Assembly (NCBI GenBank): GCA_951812955.1
Contig: OX638340.1
Coordinates: forward strand, 1,760,001 to 1,824,000
Source: an uncultured Gemmatimonadota bacterium
GTDB taxonomy: Bacteria; JAAXHH01
Direction of reading: 5' to 3'
DNA length: 64,000 bases
The stretch's first letter is position 1; every line of letters begins with the position of its first letter. This document shows positions 19,609 through 21,777 of the stretch, piece after piece. The notes under the pieces are model-generated. The model was not told where the DNA came from. It did not search any database and saw only the letters and a program-made list of their open reading frames with translations. Both the position numbers and the translations under genes were made by a program.

Positions 19609-21777
19609 ATGAATAGTAACTGCAAAACTGAAGTTCGATCCGAATCTGAAATAGTCACCGATTTAGAGAGTTTGAGCCAGGAAAAAGGGTACATCTATTC
19701 CTTCTGTCGAATGGTTGATGAATACCTGTGGTTGAAACCCAGCGAACCCGAAATCCCTGATTGGCACAGTCAATTAAACATACGTGAGTTAACTTTCTTA
19801 TTAGGGTTAATGGTCAAGTATCAATTGACCATATCTGATTCTCCGACTGAACGGGAGTCTGACCTACATATCGATAAGACCAATGAGTTGTTTCATGAAC
19901 TTCATCAAACTCATGCTTTTCCGAAAACAAAGGAAGTAAACGCCGCCCAAGTGAACTTAGAAGATTGGGAATCGGGGTTGAAAAACACCTATACCGACTG
20001 GATCAAAAGCGGTAAAGGTATCGTCGAGCCGGTTTTTTATGGTGAAGAAGGTGCATACGATTTCCAGTTCCTCAAAATGGCAGCATGGAGGTACAAACTT
20101 GATAATCAGTGGATAAAGTCGAACATAGGTATGGATGTTGATACTTTAACTGATATCGCAGGTAAGATTAAACGACTTACCGAATATCGCGCCAATGATG
20201 TAACCAGGACGTCAGACTTCAGAGATTCATGCTTTCGGTTGATATCAGTCTTCTTAATTAAGCCAGATGGCGTTCCTGGCGCTAATAGAGAAGAAATCGA
20301 AGTCTTTCTTGAAACCTTTTCTGTTGAACCACGGGACGGAGTTAATCAGAACCTTAACACGATTGGTGAATACAACACGGCAGACTCGCACCCCATTATT
20401 AAGATTAACAATGAACTTTATTTCATTCCCATCTACTACAACCTAGCAAAATCCATCTACGAGAACCCCTTCTACTGGATTCTCAAAGACAGTGATTACA
20501 GACAAACAGGACTTCAGAACAGGGGTGATGTTACAGAAGAAATAGTATTCGAACTGTTACGACGAGTTTTTGGTATAGACAACGTTTTTCGCAGGGTAAA
20601 AATAAAACGTGGAAACAGAGACATAACGGATATCGACGTTCTTGCAGTATGTGGGAGTAAAGCTGTCATTGTACAGGTGAAATCTAAGAGACTTACGGTG
20701 CTGTCGAAAGGTGGTGATGGCAAGAGCATAGAGAAGGATTTCAAACAAGCTGTTCAGGATGCTTACACCCAAGCGTTATTGTCGAGAAACTTCCTGCTAG
20801 AGACAGATGAAACACTGACGGTTAATGAAGAAAGGCTAATGCAGGTCAAAGGGAACATCGATGATGCCTATATAATCTGCGCTACTGGTGATCATTATCC
20901 TGCAATTACTATTCAGACAAAGTCATACCTCAAAAAGAAGGCAACCGACCCTTACCCAGTTGTACTAAGCGTTTTTGACCTTGATACTATATCGTTTTAC
21001 CTCAGAGAACCGTATGATTTCATATACTACGTTCGTCAACGCACTATACATGCGGGTCACTTCGAGGCTGATTCAGAAATGGCCTTTCTTGGTTTTCATC
21101 TAAACAAAAAACTATTTCCCACAGATGGATATGATATCACGATTATCCCACAATATTATGCATATCTCATCGATATTAGTTTTCCAGTCCTAAAGGGTGA
21201 GCATCCTATTTCGGATGCAGCATACAAGGTATTCCACAAGTGGAAAAACAACGATTTTGATGAGCTAGTTAATGAAATCAAAGTTAGAAATACCGGTCAT
21301 CCACAACTGACAGATTTGATTTTCTTTTTGTTCGATTTAGCAGGATCAGTAGCCGACAAGATTTTCGAAATCTTCGGCGAAATCAAACGAACCACTCGTG
21401 GTGACCTAAAGCCTCACGATGCTACAATTCCAATAGACCAAGCCGGGAAAGGTATAACACTGTTCTGCTACCCTTCGACGTTAGAACTTAGTGAGACAAT
21501 AATCCAAGATCAGTTTCGAGGCTTTGCAGCTGCTCGGAAATACAAAAGCAAAGCTAATGAATGGTTAGCGCTCGCATCATCCGCACAAAGTTCAAATCTG
21601 TTTGACTGTCTCTGGTATAGTAAAGAAGTATGGTGTTATGATGAGAGTTTCGAGCGTCTATCAAAACACATGATTAAACAAGGACATCCCATTCGTACTG
21701 ACGGACGGAAAATAGGTAGAAATTCACCCTGCCCTTGTGGAAGTGGATTGAAGTTTAAAAAGTGCCACGGAAAATAA
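19609..21777 (+). CDS. Large hypothetical protein with a NERD-like PD-(D/E)xK nuclease core and C-terminal SEC-C zinc-binding motif; candidate defence nuclease
   Basis: 722 aa, very AT-rich. Central [13 protein letters not shown]...[25 protein letters not shown] fits E...D-x-D...Q-x-K as in the NERD consensus (EIDHIVI...GIFVIETKN). The extreme C-terminus [18 protein letters not shown] is a SEC-C motif. Confidence 0.5.
   Translation: [722 protein letters not shown]

Follow-up and report, generated by a model that had tools for sequence, protein, structure and literature searches.

A 722-residue protein with a NERD-like nuclease core and a SecA-type zinc tail is a candidate single-gene defense nuclease of an undescribed family

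The stretch of DNA analyzed here (hereafter "the window") comprises 64,000 nucleotides of an uncultured Gemmatimonadota bacterium (assembly GCA_951812955.1, contig OX638340.1, positions 1,760,001 to 1,824,000) and carries, at 19609..21777 of the forward strand, as do all of the features of this gene given below, a complete NERD/SEC-C protein gene, which starts with ATG and, stop codon included, encodes 722 amino acids (aa), as evident from the open reading frame (ORF) list and its translation. The original prediction, made from the letters alone, had pictured it as a NERD-like PD-(D/E)xK nuclease core joined to a C-terminal SEC-C zinc motif, as the most AT-rich large gene of the window, as lying in a low-GC island directly downstream of a type I restriction-modification (RM) operon, and as a candidate undescribed single-gene defense nuclease, and this description of the locus has held up well. 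All four of the peptides quoted are present in the translation (residues 309-321, 338-347, 353-360, i.e., VIVQVKSK, and 705-722), the G+C fraction of the gene (0.408) is lower than that of every other window ORF with 300 aa or more, the window mean being 0.555, the gene is situated within a low-GC stretch at about 19-27 kb, and its start is found 141 bp past the stop of hsdM (17980-19467). Full-length homologues span residues 1-722.

Both of the proposed domains exceed their curated Pfam cut-offs: NERD (PF08378) at residues 306-396 with 24.6 bits against a cut-off of 22.1, covering positions 2-91 of the 111 in its hidden Markov model (HMM), and SEC-C (PF02810) at residues 704-722 with 37.3 bits against 20.4, covering HMM positions 1-19 of 19. 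A NERD match (E<=0.05) is seen in 45 of 50 family members, and a SEC-C match in 46. The regions around them, which had been said to match nothing recognizable, indeed remain without a family in Pfam, NCBIfam and PADLOC (residues 1-305 and 397-700, among them the N-terminal ~300 aa and the C-terminal ~240 aa), and the sole matches among the PDB sequences, whether searched with the sequence or with the family-alignment profile, are to the SecA/YchJ zinc tail. The only PADLOC-DB v2.0.0 models that match are PDC-S12 and E2 / E1-E2, over residues 677-722 only, so that no known system is matched beyond the zinc tail, and the literature search found no paper joining NERD and SEC-C and none describing the 722-aa architecture, in agreement with the earlier statement that no named defense system combines the two. 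Plasmid copies are annotated as nothing more than a "SEC-C metal-binding domain-containing protein", as a "NERD domain-containing protein" or, erroneously, as a "prepilin peptidase".

An AlphaFold2 model, for which a 50-sequence alignment (A1) was supplied, is a confident single body (mean predicted local distance difference test, pLDDT, 87.7; predicted template modeling score, pTM, 0.89) made of four parts. The first of these (~1-300) is a mostly helical N-terminal region of no known family (residues 1-300, 20,508 being its last position: 19609..20508), for which we propose the role of a sensor or regulatory module. It is followed by the nuclease core of the NERD / FokI-like cleavage-domain type (residues 306-460, 20524..20988), an alpha/beta domain with the fold alpha-beta-beta-beta-alpha-beta, which superimposes on known PD-(D/E)xK superfamily members and thereby confirms the core that had been predicted. 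Next comes a C-terminal region of no known family (residues 465-700, 21001..21708), which the conservation profile shows to be less conserved and whose secondary structure in the model consists of helices and then a beta-beta-alpha-beta-beta unit (~465-690), and, lastly, the SEC-C (SecA-type) Cys-x-Cys-x8-Cys-His metal-binding tail (residues 704-722, 21718..21774), as recognized by Pfam and by the SecA/YchJ peptides in the PDB. A fold search with the model returned DNA nucleases as all of its closest structural neighbors, and a search of the viral folds in BFVD gave no match at E<=0.001. Two further candidates for catalytic elements were rejected: another nuclease core formed by the beta-beta-alpha-beta-beta unit near the C-terminus, which has neither a fitting strand order nor conserved acid/Lys residues, and a HEPN-like R-x4-H motif at R476-Q-R478...H481, the histidine of which is not conserved.

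Conservation was assessed from A1 and from a larger alignment of 183 sequences, in the latter of which the best conserved block comprises residues 246-500. The predicted metal ligands of the core are E310, an acid on the first core helix (20536..20538) that is conserved in at least 90% of the sequences, and the "PD"-equivalent aspartates D341-I-D343 on the second core strand (20629..20637), either one of which is a candidate; both are invariant in A1, and D343 is conserved at >=98% among the 183 sequences, as are Q356, K358, S359, K360, T363, G369, D377 and F378. The canonical (D/E)-x-K is replaced by Q356-V-K358 (20674..20682), with the Gln being invariant in A1 and the 183-sequence alignment alike, as are K358, S359 and K360. 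The E...D-x-D...Q-x-K signature with NERD-like spacing put forward in the original prediction is therefore upheld as regards its conserved residues and its spacing (E310...D343...Q356-x-K358 being 33, 13 and 2), which mirrors that of E535/D567/E580/K582 in the NERD domain of ZwsA, whereas the (D/E) site itself is occupied by Gln throughout the family. An invariant acid, D377, opens the helix that follows the Q-x-K strand (20737..20739) and could be the relocated catalytic acid. Active enzymes with Q/N-x-K sites are represented by HinP1I and MspI. Migration of the (D/E) residue with retention of activity has been described for Cfr10I (PMC2441816). The conservation of catalytic-type residues over 183 sequences argues for an active enzyme, which, judging by its sequence, would be a metal-dependent nuclease. 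A pairwise alignment to the FokI cleavage domain scored 28.5, below the shuffle mean of 34, and is not significant, so it is only by the similarity of the folds that D341/D343 can be equated with FokI D450 and Q356 with D467.

Conservation is by no means limited to the core. The strongest N-terminal motif, E140-P-x-F-Y144-G-x-x-G148-A-Y-D-F-Q153 (20026..20067), was read from the invariant columns of A1, and E140, Y144, G148 and Q153 from within it, together with Y162, D165 and W168 just downstream, are conserved at >=98% in the 183 sequences, where a further conserved N-terminal set comprises N246, N256, P262, Y284, P287, W290, Y297, R305 and G306. These residues could line a pocket for a ligand or else form the surface that meets the nuclease.

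The zinc tail is nearly identical to the C-terminal peptides of SecA and YchJ in the PDB, has all of the metal ligands (C708, C710, C719 and H720), and is found in 63 of the 79 genome loci, both of the archaeal loci included, with most of the exceptions being truncated ORFs. In two Patescibacteria homologues (L057 4868-7030 and L060 9980-12142; loci are referred to by our own numbers) its place is taken by a Lys/Arg-rich end (e.g., KKKAARKNKRKHKR), a replacement suggesting that the job of the tail is polyanion binding, and the simplest reading of the tail would be that of a basic polyanion-binding anchor. A SecB handle was rejected as its general role because archaea, to our knowledge, have neither SecA nor SecB, yet the archaeal members retain the tail. 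As for SecA itself, its C-terminal metal-binding domain binds both SecB and ribosomes, according to one report (bioRxiv 10.1101/613315), whereas the present family keeps the motif also in lineages without SecA or SecB. SEC-C tails are found in the PADLOC candidate PDC-S12 and E2-type proteins as well, and the validated lactococcal defense protein Rugutis (359 aa) has an N-terminal SEC-C motif (PMC11381338), so the motif recurs among defense proteins without an assigned function; Rugutis, a single protein conferring phage resistance, differs from the family in the N-terminal position of the motif and in having no reported nuclease domain. At one locus (L091 4588-5424), a second, unrelated 278-aa protein with a SEC-C motif is encoded ~5 kb upstream of the family member.

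Relatives of the protein are numerous and of one build. A word-indexed search returned more than 440 of them, nearly all 700-780 aa long and matched over their full length, an exhaustive profile search of 1.84 billion representatives gave 819 clusters (50% identity) at E<=1e-30, a number that rises to 2260 at E<=1e-10, all with one architecture, and a scan of 185,579 species genomes (one genome per species) yielded 256 confirmed relatives. The carriers include Chloroflexota, Acidobacteriota, Bacteroidota, Patescibacteria, Desulfobacterota, Ignavibacteriota, Omnitrophota, Pseudomonadota and Bacillota, and, among the archaea, Aenigmatarchaeota and ANME-2; they belong to at least 10 phyla in all, and their distribution is thin, patchy and cross-domain. 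As many as 36 plasmid records carry the family, 22 of them conjugative, and no copy was found among 50,697 phage records. There are also broken copies, frameshifted at four loci (L009, L016, L073 and L075) and truncated by IS21 at one, which indicates that the gene is dispensable, as expected of an accessory gene.

Some plasmid-borne relatives cover only a part of the protein. The distant relatives at L093 4052-6058 (on a Halomontanus plasmid) and in homologues H56, H58, H60 and H61 are limited to an extended core (~213-516 of the query), and such core-only proteins, found on haloarchaeal, Mycolicibacterium and Exiguobacterium plasmids, have different termini, with the SEC-C tail region unmatched, which makes the nuclease core a separable module. 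On the Polaromonas plasmid CP087967.1 (L092 6025-6804), a 259-aa "SEC-C domain-containing protein", encoded ~2.5 kb from the BREX genes pglZ and brxL, matches residues 456-719 only and is what is left of a truncated copy or else a C-terminal module in its own right. The sequences of the core-only and C-terminal-only plasmid proteins suggest that the architecture is modular.

The behavior of the gene within its island is best followed by comparing the window with a related genome (L001), the orthologue of which is 84% identical at the protein level and 87% at the nucleotide level over window positions 19561-21787. The flanks on the left (L001 3-6264 = window 6214-11266) and on the right (L001 18577-22166 = window 26764-30420, containing an exonuclease III gene and a ParC/GyrA-like gene) are collinear, and the two genomes share, within the island enclosed by them, nothing but the target and a PIN-containing segment. 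The cargo seen only in the window consists of the type I RM genes hsdR, hsdS and hsdM, the Fic-like_C/HATPase_c_4 gene embedded among them, and the two-gene PDC-M48 candidate system, and that seen only in L001 of extra PIN/ribbon-helix-helix (RHH) pairs, an uncharacterized 358-aa gene, an XhoI-type type II RM system and a Hachiman system with both of its components, HamA and HamB. As the target is kept while the other cargo differs, it is a self-contained module in a defense-island hotspot (window ~11.27-26.76 kb), and an obligatory dependence on the adjacent type I RM was rejected, the L001 orthologue persisting without hsdR, hsdS and hsdM.

The same autonomy is seen across the family. When 1301 ORFs taken from 79 loci and the window were clustered by all-against-all BLAST, no conserved partner gene emerged, and a multi-gene system was rejected on this ground; nor is an adjacent partner of the antitoxin/immunity type or a cognate DNA methyltransferase beside the nuclease conserved at the 79 loci, where the immediate neighbors vary from locus to locus. 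The commonest neighbors are serine recombinases (11 loci), N6-methyltransferase/HsdM (9), HsdR (7), tyrosine integrases (5) and YgjP-like proteins (4), as many as 105 Pfam families are represented among the 149 proteins encoded within two genes of the target (40 loci), and the median intergenic gaps flanking the target are 141 and 105 bp.

Sixteen annotated loci, the window included, were inspected, the length of the contig having decided which chromosomal ones were taken, and recognized defense systems were counted within 10 kb of the target. Such systems are present at seven of the 16 (a raw count): type I RM and PDC-M48 in the window; Hachiman and the XhoI-type type II RM in L001; a split Dsr1, a type IIG RM, a PD-T4-4/AriA-like ATPase and HigBA in L080; Mokosh MkoA and MkoB in L084; an integrase and a type I RM in L088; BREX in L092; and HsdS, an AAA ATPase and an integrase in L094. 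Four more have a mobile-element, toxin-antitoxin or methyltransferase setting or (L083) only a neighboring P-loop NTPase, and the remaining five have plain housekeeping surroundings. Parts of type I RM systems are found within 10 kb at nine of 78 genome loci, against a chance estimate of <1% that assumes about one type I system per 4-Mb genome, and the association with defense appears, on the whole, real but moderate. At one Chloroflexota-like locus (L085 6956-12166), F420 biosynthesis genes, cofD and cofC-like, flank the homologue together with a 954-aa gene that has no annotation, and the two may be a small insertion into what is otherwise a housekeeping cluster.

The other contents of the window island deserve a brief description as well. 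The type I RM operon (12016-19467, forward strand) consists of hsdR, a PIN gene (14988-15575), hsdS, the Fic-like_C/HATPase_c_4 gene and hsdM, with the 251-aa Fic-like_C/HATPase_c_4 gene (17228-17983) sharing 4-bp overlaps with hsdS at its start and with hsdM at its stop; accessory genes inside a type I locus, apparently translationally coupled, could by analogy recall the PrrC/Rlo-type guards. A 51-nt direct repeat, 76% identical (14729-14779 and 15621-15671), in which the hsdR 3' end is copied upstream of hsdS, brackets the PIN gene and looks like the trace of a recombination event or of the insertion of a cassette; the PIN segment, unlike hsdR, is found in L001 too. A perfect 19-nt tandem duplication (GAATTACCCATACACAGGT, two copies, 11949-11986) is found 30 bp upstream of the hsdR start and may be an operator or regulatory site, and imperfect 12-nt tandem repeats (ACCCAACATGAT-like, in four registers, 17633-17750) within the Fic-like_C/HATPase_c_4 gene, translated as a short peptide repeat, could be a tract prone to slippage. 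Directly downstream of the target and convergent with it lies the PDC-M48 candidate system (21848-23422, reverse strand), composed of PDC-M48B, a metallo-beta-lactamase (MBL)-fold hydrolase (E 2.6e-166, full length), and PDC-M48A, a putative membrane protein of 166 aa (E 9e-63), with G+C fractions of 0.44 and 0.37 for the two genes; the literature search found no paper naming PDC-M48. The 3.3 kb between PDC-M48 and the exonuclease III gene (23423-26756, G+C fraction 0.445) have no ORF of more than 121 aa, their counterpart in L001 holds Hachiman, and they are probably decayed island cargo. No RNA family was found in the window with Rfam and no tRNA with ARAGORN, the latter meaning that the island is without a tRNA attachment site within the window.

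The explanation favored here, and held to be moderately probable, is that the protein is an autonomous, horizontally mobile, single-polypeptide defense nuclease of an undescribed family, and the single-gene defense nuclease of the original prediction accordingly stands as a candidate on account of its autonomy, mobility, conserved site and defense neighbors. The effector would be the metal-dependent NERD / FokI-like PD-(D/E)xK domain with E310, D341/D343 and K358 as its site, an invariant Q356 where NERD has Glu, and D377 as the probable relocated acid. In the model, this domain is packed between the family-specific helical N-terminal and alpha/beta C-terminal regions, which might keep it inactive on host nucleic acid until a cue from the invader releases or directs it, and the strongly basic SEC-C zinc knuckle would probably serve as an anchor on nucleic acid or the ribosome rather than as a SecB handle. 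The idea of such gating is taken from other one-protein nuclease defenses that work in this way (Upx, Shedu, FokI-type and type IV enzymes), and attached large domains that hold a non-specific cleavage module off the host DNA until a cue arrives should be regarded as a working analogy. The domains, the fold, the conservation, the autonomy and mobility of the gene and its frequent place in defense islands are observed, whereas nuclease activity, a part in defense, autoinhibition, the trigger and the role of the tail are inferred from them. The proposal is thus of an undescribed form within a known category, the one-protein nuclease defense, rather than of a new one; candidates of this kind are many, and what distinguishes the present one are the size of the family and its fixed architecture, its two domains without known relatives, the invariant Q-x-K and the SecA-type tail.

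Among the systems already described, Upx (Gao_Upx; PDB 9wuf) is a single-protein PD-(D/E)xK anti-phage nuclease (PMC13099982, PMC13601566). It is, however, a protein of 1272 aa with a canonical D1161/E1176-x-K1178 core at its extreme C-terminus and a second, atypical nuclease at its N-terminus, whereas the 722-aa protein has a central core, a Q-x-K motif and a SEC-C tail. The fold similarity is only partial, with an overall template modeling (TM) score of just 0.32. PADLOC-DB v2, which we take to hold the Gao 2020 systems, offers no model that matches beyond the tail, and no match to 9wuf was obtained with the family profile among the PDB sequences. ZwsA, a standalone NERD RNA endonuclease acting against RNA phages, in which substitution at each of E535, D567, E580 and K582 impaired defense (bioRxiv 10.64898/2026.04.06.716636), is similar in being a standalone multidomain protein with a NERD match and the same E / D / (E)-x-K spacing; the present family differs by the invariant Gln in place of the Glu of E-x-K and by flanking domains and a SEC-C tail unique to it, and the VHS, DUF647 and S4 domains of ZwsA are absent from the protein and its homologues as searched with Pfam. 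The type IIS cleavage domains of FokI and BspD6I are set apart from it by the lack of a conserved neighboring methyltransferase and of a recognizable DNA-recognition domain, and by sequence similarity that is not significant, and Shedu (SduA), Can2/Card1 and NucC by the absence of DUF4263, CARF, SAVED or cyclic-nucleotide-binding domains (Pfam), with no cyclase or CRISPR locus being found in the neighborhoods examined.

Of the rival explanations, a type IV modification-dependent enzyme, in which an aromatic/acidic pocket of the N-terminal region would read modified phage bases and the FokI-like domain would cut nearby, is considered unlikely, albeit as well placed as any other rival. Unmodified host DNA would be spared by such an enzyme, so a methyltransferase would not be needed, and the features seen are a nuclease that stands by itself and has no methyltransferase conserved beside it, the attachment of a FokI-type cleavage domain to further domains, and conserved aromatic or acidic positions at E140, Y144, Q153, Y162, D165 and W168. 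There is also a precedent in the END nucleases, where an inactive EndoIII domain is an all-helical modified-base sensor fused to a nuclease (PMC12191111). Known modified-base readers (SRA, PUA/EVE, DUF3427, winged helix, iEndoIII) were looked for in the protein, and none was found.

Equally unlikely, in our opinion, is that the protein has nothing to do with defense and that its nuclease works for mobile elements or in DNA metabolism (plasmid or integrative and conjugative element (ICE) competition, exclusion, stabilization, recombination or repair) while the gene hitch-hikes in variable regions. The mostly conjugative plasmid records, the serine recombinases and tyrosine integrases adjoining it at the loci counted above, the insertion sequence (IS) elements beside some copies and the several loci without any defense gene would all suit such a nuclease, and NERD is said to have been first noted on plasmids, by Grynberg and Godzik in 2004. 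The family, however, shows no link to a particular type of element or to a replication or transfer module, it is kept at a chromosomal defense hotspot while the neighboring systems turn over, and its single-gene insertions among housekeeping genes imply no dependence on a surrounding element, while its patchiness, its pseudogenes and its recurring RM, Hachiman, Mokosh, Dsr and BREX neighbors fit defense better.

Less probable still is an RNA-directed, translation-linked abortive-infection nuclease, with SEC-C docking on the ribosome and NERD cleaving phage or host RNA. ZwsA, with its E/D/ExK site of the same spacing, shows that a NERD protein acting by itself can be an RNA endonuclease, the tail all but matches the peptide of SecA, the metal-binding domain of which is reported to bind ribosomes as well as SecB, and the polybasic tail of the two Patescibacteria homologues would fit RNA or ribosome binding. 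On the other hand, the DNA nucleases found as the closest structural neighbors speak for a different substrate, Pfam reveals no S4, VHS or other RNA-binding domain of the ZwsA kind, and a basic zinc knuckle would bind DNA equally well, with ribosome docking being putative. A broader variant, in which the SecA-type or polybasic tail tethers the nuclease with its Gln-variant NERD site to the ribosome or to nascent nucleic acid in a kind of translation-coupled immunity, is given a slim chance; if true, RNA or transcribed/replicating invader nucleic acid would be cut at the ribosome, and both the defense mechanism and this use of SEC-C would be without described precedent. The least probable of all is that the fold has been rendered dead by the E-to-Q change and the protein is a nucleic-acid-binding sensor or regulator, since, even though Q356 replaces the second acidic metal ligand in every member and the equivalent Glu of ZwsA (E580) is among the residues whose substitution impairs defense, E310, D341, D343 and K358 are conserved along with the invariant D377 on the adjacent helix, Cfr10I exemplifies (D/E) migration with activity kept, and a sensor without an effector partner would have no output.

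Should the family be a defense system, as favored here, a widespread one-gene immune nuclease (~800 clusters in bacteria, archaea and on conjugative plasmids) would be added to those already described, together with two domains of unknown fold that probably carry the sensing logic, an unusual Q-x-K site, and a second function for the SEC-C zinc knuckle outside protein secretion. The gene is small, autonomous and easily cloned, which makes the hypothesis directly testable, and a FokI-like cleavage module that is compact and brings its own switch might also be of use as a tool.

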